Shown here one piece after another: positions 33,001 to 42,000 of a stretch of 64,000 bases of DNA. Positions within the stretch are counted from its first letter, which is position 1. Each line of letters opens with the position of its first letter. Origin of the DNA: Candidatus Izemoplasmatales bacterium (GTDB taxonomy: Bacteria; Bacillota_I; Bacilli_A; Izemoplasmatales; Hujiaoplasmataceae). Made by a program: the position numbers. Where the stretch lies: contig JBMNEZ010000001.1 in the NCBI GenBank assembly GCA_050949045.1, positions 64,001-128,000 of the forward strand, read 5' to 3'.

Positions 33001-36000
33001 TACTATCAGGAAGTCCTCGAGACAATCCTTCGGGTTTCGAAAGAATACCAAAAACAGATTATCTTAAGGAACACTATATGAGAATTATCGATCTTCGAAG
33101 CGACACGGTGACCAAACCGACCAAAGCGATGTATGAAGCGATTTTGGAAGCCGAAGTCGGCGACGATGTCTTCCAAGACGATCCGGAAACCAACAGACTC
33201 GAAGCGTTGTGCGCCGCCAAACTTGGGAAAGAGGCAGCGCTGTTTGTACCTTCGGGGACATTTTCAAACCAATTGGCAATCTTTACCCATTGCCTTCAAG
33301 GAGAAGAGGTCATTCTCGATCAAAACTCCCATATCGTCCAGCACGAATCTGGTGCTTCGGCCATCATTGCCGGAGTACAACTTTTCACGCTCCAAGGCGA
33401 TGTTGGGATGTGGGACTTGAATCAATTCGGCAAGGTCATTAAGGAGCGGACGATCTCAACGACCAGAACAAGACTGGTGTGTCTGGAAAACGCCTTCGGC
33501 GGCCGGGCTTTGTCACTGGATTATCTTCATGACGTGGCAAGGATTGCGAGAGCCGGAGGCTTGAAGATTCATTTGGACGGTGCGCGAATCTTCAATGCGG
33601 CGGTAGCTTTGGAAACGAACGCCAAAGCGATCGCTGAAGTAGCGGATTCCGTCAGTGTATGTCTTTCCAAGGGACTTGGGGCTCCGATCGGGACGCTACT
33701 CGTCGGAAGCACTGAATTCATCCGGGAAGCCCGGTTAAAACGGAAGCTGATGGGCGGCGGCATGCGACAGGTCGGCATCTTGGCGGCTTGCGGTAAAATC
33801 GCGCTCGAAACAATGCCTCTTCGTTTGAAAATCGACCATGATAATGCCCGATACATGGAATCTTTATTGCGCCAGATCCCGGGTTTAATGATAGATGAGC
33901 GCCAAAGAGACATCAACATGGTTTTCTTTGATATCGATGATGAACGCAAACTGGGGTTGGAAGCCTTTTTGGCAAAACACGGAGTCAAGACACTAGGATA
34001 CGAAAACGGCTTCCGCTTCGTCACGCATTATGATGTTGATCAAGCCGATATCAAAACGGCGATCGATTTGGTCGCAGCGTATTTTTCTTGAAACTATTAA
34101 TCAATGATGACCGTCCTTTTATTACAATGGCGGTCCTTTTTTAAATGAGGCGATGTTGAATTGACTTGGCAGAAGCCATGGATCATGGACTAGTAAAATT
34201 TATTATTTCCGATTGGAAAATGGCGATTTCTCATGGAAGAGAAACACCGCATTCATATTCCATAATTATAGCAGGAAAAGATGATGTTGCCATTTAAAAA
34301 CGGAGTTGCTTATTTAATGAATAATGTTATAATATCATGGGGTAATAGAGACAAAAAAAACACCATGATCAAGGGAGGAACAATGTGATGCTGTTACGAA
34401 GAATCAAAGGGATTCGAATCGAAGGGAAAAAGGCGATGTCCTGCTCTGCACTTTTACAGGATTATTTGGACCCTCCCGTTGTCGCTATTCCTCTGCTTCA
34501 AGGTAGCGCCCCTTTGAAGCCGGCAGTCGAAATAGGATCTTCCGTCAAGATCGGCGATATCATCGCGTATCGTGAAGGTTTAGGGGCCATGCCGATTCAC
34601 GCTTCCATCGCCGGGAAAGTGACGGCGATCAAGAAAGTTTGGCATGCCTGCGGCCGCATGGTCGAAGCATTGGAGATTGAAAACGATCATAGTGGAGCTC
34701 TCTCAGATTCTATCAAGCCGGAAATCGATCCAGAAGGCTTGGATAAAGATGCGCTGATCAAAAAAATGATCGATGCGGGCCTTGCCGGACTCGGCGGAGC
34801 CGGTTTTCCAACCTATGTCAAATATCAATCCGGATGCCCAATTGATACGATTATCATCAACGCCATTGAATGCGAACCGTATCTTACTTGTGATTATCTC
34901 TTGTCGGTCAGACATCCGGAAAAATTGGTGAAGGGTCTACACTACTTCATGAAAGCCGCCGGAGCCGAAAAGGGAGTCATCGCCTATAAAGGCTACAATC
35001 AGGCGGTCGAAGAAGCAATCAAGCCTTATCTCGAAAAGTATCCGGGAATTACCGCATTCCCCTTTAAAGATGTCTATCCGGCAGGTTGGCAAAAATATTT
35101 AACTGAAGCCATAACCGGAAAAACCTATTCTAAACTCCCCTCGGAAGCGGGCGCCATCGTAAACAACTCCGGTACGGCAATCGCTTTTGCGGATATGGTT
35201 GAAAACAATATTCCATTAATTGCCAGAAGTATCACCATCACCGGCGAGGGCATAACCAATCCGCAGAACTTCTATGTGCCGCTCGGGACGAAAGTGGCTG
35301 ATCTCGTTAAGCTTTGCGGTGGATACCGTGAAGGACTGGATCCGAAATATGCTTGGTATATCGCCGGTGGTCCGATGACCGGTCGGGCAATCTTGATCGA
35401 CGATCTTGTTGTGAGTGAAACATTGGGAGCCGTTGTTGTGATCCCAATGCCGAAAGAGAAACTGCATCCCGAATGCTTGGGTTGCGGGAAATGCGCGGAT
35501 GCCTGTCCGGCATTTCTTACCCCAACAGAAATCAAACGGGCAGCCGACATGAAAGACAAGGCGGCACTTATACAACTTCAAGCCGACAAATGCATCGCCT
35601 GCGGTCTTTGTTCATATGTCTGTCCGTCACATATTGAAATCACCGATGCCGTAGTCAAGGCCCGGGATTCTCTGAAGAAAGGAGCATAGGAAGAATGGCC
35701 AGGTTTGCAAGCGGGAAAGCCCCGTTTCTGAGAATATCGGATCAACCTAATCAAGGGACCGGCATCATCATGCGTGATTTCATGATTGGTCTTATACCCG
35801 TCATTTTGTTTTCTTGGTACAAGAATGGTATTCAAGTGATGATTGACGGCAACATCGGCTTCTTGGAAATGCTCTATCCGCTCATCTTTATCATGTTGGG
35901 CGGTCTCTTGTCCACGGTCATGGAAGGGATCGTCTTTTACATCATCGATCCCGATTCAAGAAGTTTTAAAGGAATCTTGGAAAAACTCAGTACCTCGTAT

Positions 36001-39000: not shown

Positions 39001-42000
39001 CGAAGCGATTGTCGATGGCGCGGGGATGGCGATTGGCTTTACCTTGGCAATCATGATCATCAGTTTGTTGAGAGAAGTATTGGGCGCCGGGAAGATCACG
39101 ATTTGGAAAGCGGCTGTTTTCGATCTCACTGGCCTTTATGATTTTCTGGGAATCGAACCGATCGGGATGTTTCTAAGGCCGGAAGGGGCCTTCATCACTA
39201 TGGGATTTCTCCTAGCGGCCGTAGCGGCGATCCAAAACTGGATCAATGCGAAAAAAACCGCAAAAGCGGATAGGGGAGGAAAACAATAATGTCCGGTCAA
39301 TCGTTACTTGTCATCGCCTTTACCGCCTTTTTCATTCAAAACGTGCTTCTCAACCAGTTCTTGGGGATTTGTTCTTTCATCGGGGTCGGGCAAAAACGGA
39401 GTTCAGCGTTCGGAATGGGGCTTGCGGTCATAGTCGTCATCGTCTTGGCCAGCATCGTCACCTTCGCGATCTACAATTATCTGATGTATCCCTTGCATCT
39501 CGAGTTCATGCGGACGATCTTCTTTATTCTGGTAATCGCGGCTTTGGTTCAGATGATTGAAACCATCATCAAACGATTTTCTCCAGCTCTCTACAAAGCC
39601 TTGGGAATCTATCTCCCGCTTATCACCACGAACTGCGCGGTTTTAGGAGTCGCTCTCACAAACATCAACGAAGGCTTCACCTTTGTCGAAATGCTCGTGT
39701 ATTCCACGGCGACCGCCTTTGGCTACCTCTTTGTCATGTATATCTATGCCATCATCCGGGAACGTGTCAGTTTGTCTCCGGTGCCGAAAGCCTTCCGCGG
39801 TATCCCGATCGCGATGATCATCGCAGCGATCCTTGCCATGATTTTTTCACGGTTTGGAGGGTTGATTTAAGATGCAAATCTTGATTGCGGCCGCCATACT
39901 CGGTGGATTAGGGTTCGTATTGGGATTGCTGATCTTTTTAGTTGAAAAGTATTTCGGTGTCGAAGTGGATTTGTCGGTCCGAGAAGTGGAAGAAATGTTG
40001 CCGGGAGTCAATTGCGGTTCCTGCGGTTTTGCGGGATGCCAAGAAATGGCTGTGGCGCTTTTGGAAAAAAACGCGGTTCCTAAGCAATGCAAGCCCTTGA
40101 GACAAGAAAAAGTTGTCGCTTTACAGGCGTATTTGGATGAATATTTCAAGAATAAACAATAAACATATCAATCGTAAAATGCCCTCGTCGCTGATGAGGG
40201 TTTTTTATGGAGTTAAAATGATTTTGCCGTCATGATTTTGTTGCAATATTCATTCATTCAGGTTATAATAGACAACTAGAGAACAATTAACATTATTAGG
40301 AGGAAATAATGAAAAAGATTGGCTTATTACTTCTAGTTTTAATAGCATCCCTTGCTTTAACTGGATGCAAGACAAGTGAATTCAAAGTGGACGGAGAATT
40401 CACTGCTTTCGAAGCATCCGTGTATTCCAATGCGCCAATGGTGACCATGGTGACTGTGAAGATTGAAAAGGGCGAAATCGTGGATTTCACGATCGATTGT
40501 ATCCAAGGAAAACGGACCGAAACGGATGGAACCTATTCCTTTGCATTTAATGCAGAGTCGAAACGCGATCTCGGTTTCAATTACAAAATGCACTATTATA
40601 CGTACGCTGCAACAGACGACACCCCAACAATGGAAGAGTATCAGACTTGGTTGACGACCAATAACAGAAAAGAATGGTTCCAACAAGCCGACCTGATTGA
40701 AGCAGCTTGGTTGGCGAACGGCTATGATTCTGTGACGAAAAACACCGATGACAAATCGCCAGATTATGAAAGAATCGATAACGTAGCCGGAGTCACCATT
40801 AAAGACGGCGGTTATATCGAATTGGCAGCGGCAGCTGTCGAACTAGCCAAAAAAGGCAAGTTCCAAGCTTTGATCGCCACCAAAACTGACATCTATTTCG
40901 CATCGATGGTTGTCTCCCCAAAAGGCAAAGTTAGCGAACTAGTCATCGACACCCTGCAAGCGGCTCCTTCCGGAGCGGATTTTGCTTGGAAAGCCAAGAC
41001 GAAACAGGAGCTTGGAGATGAGTATGGGATGAAGGGCATAGGCCAAGCTTACACCTTTGCGGATGGTGTTTGGACCAAAAGCGCTACGGAAAAAGCATCG
41101 CTCGAATGGTACGAACAAGTCGCTTTGATCAGCGATTACGTGCTTGAGAACGGCTGGGATGCTAATCTTCAGGCAGTTGGCGGACGCGGTGGCTCCTTGA
41201 ATGGAACGACATTGCTCGACGATCTCGCCGGTGTGACAGTTCTTTCACAGACTTATTTCGATGTTCTCGAAAAATTGTTTGCTTGTCCCGCTAAAGGCGA
41301 AGTCAAGTAAGATCGCGATAACTAAAGAATCAAGTTGCCTGTAAGGGCAACTTTTTCTTTGGGATAAAAATGAATCTTGTCATAATAGAACGGATTCGGT
41401 ATTGAGATTGCGATAGTGTGAAGGACCGCTTCTGAAAATCGGGATTCTCTTGGATTGCAGAAGCGTACCTGATTTGATATGTGCGCTTCCAAGAGTTGGC
41501 CGATTTTTTGCTTTCATCGAATTATTATGATTTACAAAACCAATTATTTCAAGTAAAATACTAGTTGTATGCGCCATTAGCTCAGTCGGTAGAGCAAATG
41601 ACTCTTAATCATTGGGTCCTGGGTTCGAGTCCCTGATGGCGCACCAAGATGATGATAAAGCCCTTCCGATCATGGAGGGCTTTTAAATTCTTGTAATACC
41701 GCATAATCGTCAATTTTGTTTTTTGGTACGCCTATATAACATACCATGATTTTTTATATATGGTAGGCATACACTTAAAACAAACATTAACATTATTGGA
41801 AAACCTAATTATTGTTGAAAAAAAGTTTATATTAGCATATAATAAAATCGATAATGGTACAGTTTGTATAATTTGAAGATGCTTTTTAGAAAACGCTGAA
41901 AATAAAAAAACTAATTATACTTGTGCTCACTTTTATTTATTTCATTTGTCCACTTTGGAGTTATAATATCCAACTGTACTAATTTCAATGGTTTATTAGC

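Follow-up and report, generated by a model that had tools for sequence, protein, structure and literature searches.

We suggest, with a probability of about 0.6, that the rnf locus of this bacterium encodes a putative ordinary ferredoxin (or flavodoxin):NAD+ Rnf pump joined to an outward flavin side branch, which is here partly disabled. Surface flavoproteins beyond the canonical flavins of RnfG and RnfD are encoded at this locus, and such additional surface flavin-binding proteins are a trait of the whole lineage; the design is a variant of the multi-flavinylated RNF already described in 2021, and the idea is not new. The host, a small anaerobe of Izemoplasmatales type without a cell wall, comes from biogas reactors, digesters and bioreactors, and its genome holds one Rnf only. 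In the window, i.e., the whole stretch of 64,000 nucleotides that was analysed, the ORFs, gene order and coordinates given for the locus by the genome-wide survey's note were borne out, as were its Pfam assignments of RnfC, RnfD and two Rnf-Nqr proteins. All six Rnf subunits are encoded, in the order rnfCDGEAB with additional genes, as follows (window positions; the terminator- and promoter-like sites come from a consensus scan):

34385..35689, + strand: rnfC (434 aa), NADH/FMN module and two [4Fe-4S] motifs
35695..36885, + strand: rnfD (396 aa), predicted flavinylation motif DAYAGAT (Thr185) and a C-terminal extension of ~50 aa
36885..38051, + strand: rnfG' (g00083 and g00084), membrane-anchored protein with FMN_bind twice, interrupted by a nonsense codon
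37338..37340, + strand: in-frame TAA splitting rnfG', CAA in the nearest relative
37380..37400, + strand: motif DSVAGVT of rnfG' domain 1, downstream of the stop and outside all annotated ORFs
38053..38613, + strand: rnfG (g00085, 186 aa), canonical RnfG orthologue by profile, site DAVGGVS
38615..39289, + strand: rnfE (224 aa), Pfam Rnf-Nqr, E 8e-59
39289..39870, + strand: rnfA (193 aa), Pfam Rnf-Nqr, E 1e-49
39872..40162, + strand: rnfB in a minimal form (96 aa), membrane helix and one 4-Cys FeS domain
40181..40211, + strand: terminator-like hairpin and T run directly after rnfB, 9-bp stem with 5 GC pairs (a hint only)
40241..40269, + strand: promoter-like site TTGCAA-17-TATAAT ahead of g00089, 10 of 12 consensus matches (a hint only)
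40309..41310, + strand: lipoprotein gene g00089 (333 aa), lipobox and two FMN-bind-type domains of ~155 aa
41332..41353, + strand: terminator-like hairpin after g00089

The core of the complex is well preserved. RnfC matched Complex1_51K (E 1e-32) as well as the RnfC_N, SLBB and Fer4 families, and its score against NCBIfam TIGR01945 (304.7 bits) was above the cut-off of 245.95; RnfD matched NQR2_RnfD_RnfE (E 1e-65), its GATPL aligns to TATPL of 7zc6_D, and the alignment to solved RnfD stops at residue 345. The RnfA/E [2Fe-2S] centre retains its full set of four Cys ligands: Cys25 and Cys113 of RnfE align to C25 and C108 of Acetobacterium woodii RnfE, and Cys28 and Cys116 of RnfA to C25 and C113 of its RnfA (A. 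woodii numbering from PMC11889175). The dN/dS values against the nearest species (RnfA 0.036, RnfE 0.044, RnfB 0.107) indicate purifying selection. The family profile of g00085 matched RnfG of the solved complexes (7zc6_G, E 8e-19; also 8rb9_G and 9eri_G), the residue at its predicted flavinylation site is Thr or Ser in 46 of 46 homologues, and NCBIfam rnfG was hit at E 6e-12, below cut-off. On these matches g00085 is a true RnfG; thus, rnfG was kept and not replaced.

The locus contains six predicted flavinylation motifs, DAYAGAT (RnfD), DSVAGVT (rnfG' domain 1), DGVAGAT (g00084), DAVGGVS (RnfG), and DNVAGVT (Thr163) and DDLAGVT (Thr310) in the lipoprotein. The four that had been assigned to the outer face are all present, but DAYAGAT and DSVAGVT had been missed; the Thr of the latter is invariant (T172) in 21 orthologues. 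The motif had also been regarded as nearly exclusive to this locus, which holds roughly, since a slightly wider pattern, searched in ORFs of at least 100 aa, gave nine matches in the genome, five in the locus and four elsewhere. An extracytosolic ApbE lipoprotein is encoded elsewhere in the genome, adjoining a PF07456 protein, a family given as EetB, an FAD exporter, in the relevant passages of PMC9973259. Judged from gene content, the cell has no recognisable way to pass electrons outward other than Rnf: FMN_bind matches in the genome are confined to the rnf locus, Rnf itself is present once, and searches of the genome for cytochrome bd, DUF4405, Ferric_reduct and DsbD gave no match. It counts against an outward branch that the genome yielded no terminal extracytosolic reductase; the one protein with a full FAD_binding_2 match is a cytosolic NadB, encoded beside NadA.

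The lipoprotein g00089 had no match in Pfam. Its lipobox LALTGC is present, as had been noted, with Cys20 invariant in 38 homologues, and the AlphaFold2 model (pLDDT 94.9, pTM 0.88) gave 3o6u (Z 10.2), 2kzx (Z 9.9) and 8p2a (Z 7.2) as best fold matches; the profile match to 2kzx (E 4.7e-8) spans the motif DAISGATIK of that protein. These fold matches, together with a Thr or Ser at each of the two sites in every one of 81 sequences, support the proposal of a lipoprotein with two FMN-bind-type domains and two predicted flavin sites. It is of the published FMN-bind2 type, as far as the description in PMC11334425 (mSystems 2024) goes: there, FMN-bind2 is a two-domain unit of ~160 aa found in double-flavinylated proteins and, as here, the two domains of ~155–160 aa have an FMN-bind fold enlarged by insertions, with a site in each and an even-numbered domain arrangement. 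The likeness to the exemplar, an Erysipelotrichaceae bacterium protein, is one of description, and that part of the paper makes no mention of the rnf association seen here.

Could the lipoprotein stand outside the Rnf system, as an independent surface flavoprotein of wall-less Bacilli (e.g., one that reduces iron or flavin, or scavenges oxygen) whose gene adjoins rnfB in one order only? Its gene follows rnfB within 600 nt in 41 of 71 loci and lies away from rnf in the other 30, being found beside lepA in the four Acholeplasmataceae-type loci examined (L073, L086, L088 and L133); where the two genes are neighbours a spacer is always present (86–427 nt in 42 loci), here with the terminator-like and promoter-like sites in it. 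The JGI name of the protein, only 'major membrane immunogen (membrane-anchored lipoprotein)', also fits an independent role. However, an extracellular protein with covalent flavins needs an electron source, for which Rnf is the only recognisable route here, and the adjacency to rnfB recurs across many genera, down to 36–40% identity. Moreover, genome G206, in which the lipoprotein gene (L133) is not beside rnf, does carry an Rnf operon at another place (L044). We consider an independent lipoprotein unlikely, and prefer to regard it as part of a branch leading out from Rnf.

A second question is posed by RnfB, reported by the survey's note as lacking ferredoxin domains. This is real: no ferredoxin-type domain was found in the 96 aa, in which Pfam recognised only the FeS domain (residues 43–75). 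The protein aligns to residues 5–75 of 7zc6_B (274 aa), 9eri_B (333 aa) and 8ahx_B (174 aa), and to positions 4–89 of the 190 of NCBIfam rnfB (56.9 bits, below the cut-off of 68.7); by alignment, it is the membrane helix plus the "B8" module of solved Rnf, B8 being the RnfB cluster that reduces the [2Fe-2S] centre of RnfA/E (PMC11889175). The short form is not peculiar to this operon. It was matched in 172 of 301 sampled genomes of the class, 143 of the 150 RnfB matches listed lie in open frames of at most 133 aa, and in 20 loci 19 of the 21 rnfB genes encode 92–119 aa, while the remaining two are longer and have two FeS domains, without Fer4. On these counts, the sampled class usually has the minimal RnfB, which occurs also in plain rnfCDGEAB operons that encode a single ordinary RnfG and lack the lipoprotein gene (L033 and L034). 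Being present class-wide, with or without extra flavoproteins, it is no signal of a switch away from ferredoxin, and its reading as a sign of re-purposing had to be abandoned.

These data bear on the stronger reading of the survey's note, a one-way Rnf in which NADH would supply electrons, by way of RnfC and RnfD, to the outer flavins and on to extracellular acceptors, in the manner of Listeria PplA, with no ferredoxin:NAD+ coupling. An RnfB devoid of ferredoxin-type domains and up to six outer flavin sites would suit such a path, and one-way NQR/RNF-like systems are described in PMC8238504. In the passages concerned, however, those systems lack RnfA, RnfE and RnfB, consisting of two subunits, one RnfD/NqrB-like with a fused NAD-binding domain and one FMN-binding, whereas the present locus keeps all six subunits. 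Purifying selection on RnfA, RnfE and RnfB, with the [2Fe-2S] ligands and the 4-Cys FeS domain intact, would be pointless for an RnfC–RnfD path. The genome also encodes PFOR, a 2x[4Fe-4S] ferredoxin and flavodoxins, and no [FeFe]-hydrogenase domain (Fe_hyd_lg_C) was found in it, so that a sink for ferredoxin is still needed. Together with the class-wide occurrence of the short RnfB, this makes the loss of ferredoxin coupling quite improbable, and argues for an Rnf still fed by a cytoplasmic carrier.

The locus had been described as one in which three RnfG-like genes replace rnfG, two of them a "membrane-anchored N-terminal half" (g00083) and a "soluble FMN_bind protein" (g00084). The two share one frame with a TAA as sole separator, and are the pieces of a single nonsense-broken gene, rnfG'. 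The FMN_bind scores of g00083 (E 0.004) and g00085 (E 0.014) were as reported, and g00084 scored E 1.2e-10; reading through the stop, with X in its place, yields a protein of 388 aa that carries FMN_bind twice (E 3e-17), and domain 1 (residues 114–182) spans the stop. Full-length, stop-free rnfG' is found in 11 relatives (orthologues of 386–416 aa), and intact orthologues are present also on 24 named contigs; the stop column holds Gln in nine of nine aligned relatives, and the model of an intact orthologue has RnfG 7zc6_G as closest match (Foldseek E 7e-6, TMt 0.68). In other families, domains equivalent to those of RnfG' are attached to the RnfD C-terminus, and four of four long RnfDs tested proved to be such RnfD–FMN_bind fusions. 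The stop is identical in contigs of four runs from four metagenome studies; two of these runs are marked as a possible source of this DNA, and the other two, X6 (covering 36885–37360) and X8 (37299–37785), are not so marked. Since, moreover, neither a suppressor tRNA among the 46 tRNAs of the genome nor an intact allele of >81% identity among 22 database hits was found, the TAA is real and not an artefact, and CAA>TAA is apparently fixed in the species. On both sides of the stop, dN/dS against the nearest species (upstream 0.089, downstream 0.070) falls among the values of the neighbouring genes (0.036–0.115), so that the break is recent relative to the divergence from that species. A functional RnfG', by read-through or with halves working separately, is very improbable. 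In its favour, 236 codons are open downstream with no further damage, dN/dS is low on both sides and the same allele recurs in four studies. However, a recent mutation would leave dN/dS just as low, the genome uses TAA more often than any other stop (312 of 727 long ORFs) and no suppressor was found, the stop cuts domain 1 ahead of its flavinylation motif, and g00084 as annotated, having no signal peptide or membrane helix, would not sit on the outer face, as had been assumed for its motif, where ApbE could reach it.

The solved Rnf complexes of Clostridium tetanomorphum (7ZC6), A. woodii (9ERI) and Azotobacter vinelandii (8AHX) share with this locus all six subunits and their order, the RnfA/E Cys ligands, the flavinylation Thr/Ser of RnfD and RnfG, the NADH module of RnfC, and the membrane helix and first FeS (B8) domain of RnfB. 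Unlike in those, RnfB here ends after the B8-type domain (96 against 174–333 aa), rnfD and rnfG are separated by the gene of an additional RnfG paralogue, RnfD has its additional C-terminal ~50 aa, and a two-flavin lipoprotein gene follows rnfB. In the pertinent passages of Meheust et al. (2021, eLife, PMC8238504), multi-flavinylated RnfG in RNF clusters was proposed to offer a second path to extracytosolic acceptors; as there, the cluster encodes other FMN-binding proteins in addition to an RnfG-type protein in which FMN_bind occurs more than once, but here RnfG' stands beside a normal RnfG instead of replacing it, is broken by a stop, and is accompanied by a lipoprotein undetected by Pfam. 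The lipoprotein resembles, by description, Listeria monocytogenes PplA (surface lipoprotein, two sites, ApbE-type flavinylation, here predicted), and the pairing of an EetB-family protein with ApbE recalls the Listeria locus for flavin-based extracellular electron transfer; unlike in Listeria, the electron source would be Rnf, and this genome gave no match to cytochrome bd, which is one route to the quinone pool. Thus, the extracytosolic flavin wire postulated earlier survives in outline, with surface flavoproteins and ApbE/EetB encoded, but without the replacement of RnfG or the re-purposing of RnfB.

Taken together, RnfC, RnfD, RnfG, RnfE, RnfA and RnfB most likely still form an ion-pumping ferredoxin (or flavodoxin):NAD+ oxidoreductase, as far as sequences tell. 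With RnfB of this lineage made of membrane helix and B8 only, we infer that the cytoplasmic carrier would have to reduce B8 directly. To this core the lineage adds putative outer-face proteins with predicted ApbE flavinylation: RnfG', which is a further RnfG paralogue anchored in the membrane and has two predicted FMN sites, and the surface lipoprotein with its two FMN-bind2-type domains, which may form a flavin-only branch from the flavins of RnfG and RnfD to acceptors outside the cell. In the present species RnfG' is inactivated by the nonsense codon and the branch, if working at all, would run from the core flavins directly to the lipoprotein; the loss of RnfG' shows that the habitat of this organism does not demand the side branch, or at any rate not this component.

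Read from its sequence, the locus is a lineage-typical Rnf cluster with a minimal RnfB, consisting of a membrane helix and one four-Cys FeS domain (PF04060) without ferredoxin-type (Fer4) domains, and with a putative outward flavin side branch. Its genes are arranged as follows.

Genes of the rnf locus (window positions)
34385-35689, forward strand: rnfC
35695-36885, forward strand: rnfD
ending at 37340, forward strand: g00083, upstream piece of the gene of an RnfG paralogue (RnfG')
ending at 38051, forward strand: g00084, downstream piece of the same gene
38053-38613, forward strand: g00085, rnfG
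38615-39289, forward strand: rnfE
39289-39870, forward strand: rnfA
39872-40162, forward strand: rnfB, 96 aa
40309-41310, forward strand: g00089, lipoprotein gene, 333 aa, after a gap of 146 nt behind rnfB

The six Rnf subunit genes lie in one cluster in the order C, D, G, E, A, B, as indicated by Pfam and NCBIfam matches, and the best PDB sequence matches of the six subunits are the corresponding Rnf chains. The Pfam figures of the genome-wide survey's note were reproduced for the RnfC modules, RnfD, the two Rnf-Nqr proteins and RnfB, with its FeS domain only; FMN_bind was matched by g00083, g00084 and g00085 with E-values of 0.004, 1.2e-10 and 0.014, respectively, and the lipoprotein gave no Pfam match. 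Residues C28 and C116 of RnfA align to the [2Fe-2S] ligands C25 and C113 of A. woodii, and C25 and C113 of RnfE to C25 and C108, in the numbering used in the passages of PMC11889175 on these subunits. In RnfD, the GATPL stretch is aligned to TATPL, the flavinylated stretch of the solved chain 7zc6_D; it lies within the motif DAYAGAT, which the survey's motif count had left out. The Rnf core is intact, with all four RnfA/RnfE Cys ligands and the RnfD motif present, and the candidate Thr/Ser sites for covalent FMN are kept in RnfD and RnfG; these ligands and sites, together with the six-gene cluster, are shared with the known Rnf complex (RnfABCDGE). The present complex differs from it in its 96-aa RnfB, which lacks the ferredoxin-type [4Fe-4S] domains, the wire by which electrons enter from ferredoxin. 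Purifying selection acts on RnfA, RnfE and RnfB.

No Rfam family was found in the locus except one downstream tRNA. A tRNA-Lys(ctt) gene lies at 41571-41646 and is followed by a fall in G+C content from ~46% to ~30% (region 41571-44181). Two proteins are encoded in this low-GC stretch: one of 461 aa, in the membrane and by eye similar to a sensor kinase, and one of 247 aa, by eye similar to a LytTR-type response regulator. The stretch has the look of an acquired island flanked by a tRNA gene.

It had been claimed that the single rnfG is replaced here by three divergent RnfG-like genes. The layout on which this observation was based was confirmed, but not the count: g00083 and g00084 share one frame, split by a single TAA at 37338-37340, so that there are two genes, one of them broken. 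Similarly, the proposed outward flavin side branch found support and the replacement of rnfG did not, g00085 being RnfG itself. The family profile of g00085 matches solved RnfG over almost the whole length (7zc6_G at E 8e-19, and also 8rb9_G and 9eri_G), and its flavinylation site is Thr or Ser in 46/46 homologues. The RnfG' family profile reached no solved RnfG by sequence, and only a domain of the multi-flavin protein 8p2b (E 3e-3); by fold, however, RnfG was the closest match (7zc6_G, E 7e-6, TMt 0.68) to the model of an intact RnfG' orthologue, which had a pLDDT of 81.7. On the basis of these profile and fold results, we assign g00085 as RnfG and RnfG' as an extra paralogue, which combines a stalk helix with an RnfG-like domain and another FMN_bind domain. 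Other families of the class have extra FMN_bind domains as a C-terminal fusion to RnfD (in 4/4 of the long RnfDs that were tested) or as an addition to RnfG, and this links the extra module with that side of the complex on which RnfD and RnfG lie. A complex prediction with the soluble parts of RnfG' (intact orthologue) and RnfG and the lipoprotein scored 0.00 and, lacking controls, says nothing either way.

Among the loci of these other families, L030, L031, L037 and L048 encode RnfDs of 476-762 aa with one or two C-terminal FMN_bind domains; the RnfG of L048, 300 aa long, likewise matches FMN_bind in two stretches. A conserved Gly-Gly-acidic C-terminal tail is present in both RnfG' (NGGE, 38036-38051) and RnfG (DLGGE, 38596-38613), with DFGGG / NGG as consensus in alignments of relatives.

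When read through with X at the stop, RnfG' is a 388-aa protein with two FMN_bind domains (Pfam, E 3e-17). The stop falls inside the first of these (residues 114-182) and directly behind it, at 37380-37400, a DSVAGVT flavinylation motif lies outside every annotated ORF; the upstream piece has no flavinylation site and the downstream piece no export signal. A search of 31 related genomes revealed full-length, stop-free RnfG' in 11 relatives and, among the 24 matches listed, only the window copy has a stop. The stop column holds Gln in 9/9 aligned relatives, the nearest having CAA, and another 24 two-domain RnfG' orthologues in named contigs are single ORFs. An alternative genetic code was rejected as an explanation of the TAA, which is the commonest stop in the genome, and so was a suppressor tRNA, none being found among the genome's 46 tRNAs. 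An assembly error is ruled out by the contigs of four runs from four studies, which are identical across the TAA; two of these runs may be the source of the present DNA, and the other two, covering 36885-37360 and 37299-37785, showed no difference. No intact RnfG' allele of >81% identity was found in the protein database. The dN/dS of RnfG' against the nearest species is 0.089 before the stop and 0.070 after it, and since both values are like those of the neighbouring genes (0.036-0.115), the break is recent relative to the divergence from that species. Because the TAA cuts the gene, the RnfG' protein is probably not made in the present genome; it was probably lost in the present species, the gene having been knocked out, in all probability, by a fixed nonsense mutation. 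The locus fits the idea of multi-flavinylated RNF, as put forward in the relevant passages of PMC8238504: a multi-FMN_bind protein of RnfG type in an RNF cluster is seen in the read-through gene and in its intact orthologues, but here the gene is cut.

The lipoprotein has a lipobox with an invariant Cys, followed by two repeats (residues ~24-183 and 184-333), and its model reached a pLDDT of 94.9 and a pTM of 0.88. In an exhaustive structural comparison the top match was 3o6u (Z 10.2, 114 residues aligned, rmsd 3.1), followed by 2kzx (Z 9.9) and, at Z 7.2, by domain 2 of a multi-flavin protein of S. aureus (8p2a); unrelated structures began at Z 5.4, and Foldseek agreed. The 114 residues of repeat 1 that align to the 122-residue 3o6u are spread over the model range 24-188, and the family profile matches 2kzx at E 4.7e-8 with an alignment that spans the canonical DAISGATIK motif of the latter. 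In its passages on domain subtypes, PMC11334425 reports 3O6U as a flavinylated FMN-bind1 protein and describes FMN-bind2 as a subtype of ~160 aa with insertions, which occurs in two or four copies and forms a two-flavin unit. The lipoprotein fits this latter description, in the enlarged domain with insertions compared with FMN-bind1 and in the even copy number. Each domain contains a site similar to [S/T]GA[S/T], AGVT in both cases, with Val at -1 in place of the usual Ala; the site residue is Thr or Ser in 81/81 sequences at both positions, with Gly at -2 in 77/81 and 70/81. The published FMN-bind2 exemplar was not among the 10 homologue clusters looked up.

The family has 251 database matches, in Izemoplasmatales, Acholeplasmataceae and allies. 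The lipoprotein gene has rnfB directly upstream in 41 of the 71 loci with enough flank, always with a spacer (86-427 nt), and the gap in the window holds a terminator-like hairpin and a promoter-like site, both consensus matches only; in Acholeplasmataceae-type genomes, it adjoins lepA instead of rnfB. The lipoprotein gene is a conserved neighbour of rnf rather than a coupled operon member.

The short RnfB had been described as cut down in this operon. Its length of 96 aa and its FeS domain were borne out, but it is not a local truncation, as it occurs across the sampled class. Pfam found PF04060 alone, in 33 residues (43-75), and no Fer4 family; the protein scores below the TIGR01944 cut-off of NCBIfam, and its alignment to the solved RnfB chains (174-333 aa) is confined to their residues 5-75. 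According to the sections of PMC11889175 on RnfB, the counterpart region in A. woodii comprises the membrane helix and B8, a mobile domain from which the RnfA/E centre receives its electrons, and clusters B1-B7 and the proposed ferredoxin docking site are in the part missing here. A minimal RnfB was present in 15/15 related loci first examined and matched in 172 of the 301 genomes sampled from the class, where 143 of the 150 matches listed are open frames of at most 133 aa. Among the 21 rnfB genes of 20 class loci, 19 encode 92-119 aa. The other two, the only longer ones seen in the class (L035:3255-3830(-), 192 aa; L036:8004-8555(+), 184 aa), carry the FeS domain PF04060 twice and lack Fer4. 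With the 96-aa RnfB as query, a word-index search returned 7 proteins only, too few to map the spread, and a search of every protein gave 2400 matches, of which 97 of the best 150 have at most 135 aa, some of them possibly fragments.

The minimal RnfB is also found where the operon is plain, with a single ordinary RnfG and without the lipoprotein (L033, L034), so that it is not coupled to the presence of extra flavoproteins; the 20 loci suggest that the two traits are independent. The genome has PFOR, a 2x[4Fe-4S] ferredoxin, flavodoxins and a single Rnf, and no [FeFe]-hydrogenase domain was found in it. The simplest reading is that ferredoxin or flavodoxin would reduce the one cluster of RnfB directly. 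We found no description of such a short RnfB in the searchable literature, which leaves out subscription papers; genome papers on Izemoplasma and Acholeplasma, in their passages on the operon, treat it as a standard rnfCDGEAB. In the Rnf cluster of Peloplasma aerotolerans, the protein accession series in the relevant part of PMC11122141 has gaps (…236-38, 240-41, 243); extra genes left unassigned within that cluster, as the present operon type has them, would account for these.

The gene of an ApbE lipoprotein lies ~850 kb away (G000:C1:947225-949496, on the contig of the present genome), between those of a membrane-anchored NusG_II-domain protein and of a PF07456 protein, a family equated with the EetB FAD exporters in the portion of PMC9973259 that treats it; the three look like a compact flavin-export and flavinylation cluster. 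With regard to the Listeria-type EET system (PplA), a lipobox, two putative flavin sites, an ApbE lipoprotein and its PF07456 neighbour are present; the neighbours of the lipoprotein gene are here rnf genes, and cytochrome bd, like DUF4405, Ferric_reduct and DsbD, was not found in the 98.3%-complete, one-contig genome. An extracytosolic acceptor of fumarate-reductase type was sought and none was recognised, the sole full FAD_binding_2 match being NadB. In the whole genome, FMN_bind domains occur only in the rnf locus and, as the other routes were not found, Rnf is the only visible electron source for the outer flavins. A 2713-aa protein (G000:C1:653218-661359) has a flavinylation-like motif, DYMSGAT, 23 residues from its C-terminus and no FMN_bind match in the genome search; the motif may be due to chance.

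Taken together, these data allow a tentative reading, to which we give roughly one chance in four. Across this class of small-genome, mostly wall-less Bacilli, Rnf would work with a one-cluster RnfB whose B8 is reduced directly by ferredoxin or flavodoxin, the B1-B7 wire of all solved Rnf complexes being dispensable; the outer Rnf flavins would feed a cytochrome-free, flavin-only conduit, from RnfG' or RnfD-fused domains to the two-flavin lipoprotein, venting electrons from a quinone- and cytochrome-free fermenter to extracellular acceptors, and single species would switch this conduit off by simple mutations, of which the present stop would be an example. Three points may be new: how widely the one-cluster RnfB occurs, that the FMN-bind2 lipoprotein is regularly paired with rnf in Izemoplasmatales, and the natural RnfG' knockout.

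For annotation, the locus teaches that what looks like a "split" RnfG may be one gene interrupted by a nonsense codon and that an FMN-bind2 lipoprotein can be missed by Pfam. It has been proposed that chains of covalent flavins serve Gram-positive-type bacteria in the role that multi-haem cytochromes have in others; the extra outer flavoproteins are further examples, found here in wall-less cells. To our knowledge, the RnfB of all Rnf complexes studied biochemically or structurally contains several ferredoxin-type clusters, which are regarded as the entry site of ferredoxin. The present lineage, whose normal RnfB consists of the membrane helix and the last cluster only, offers a natural minimal version, which could show what ferredoxin coupling and ion pumping really need.
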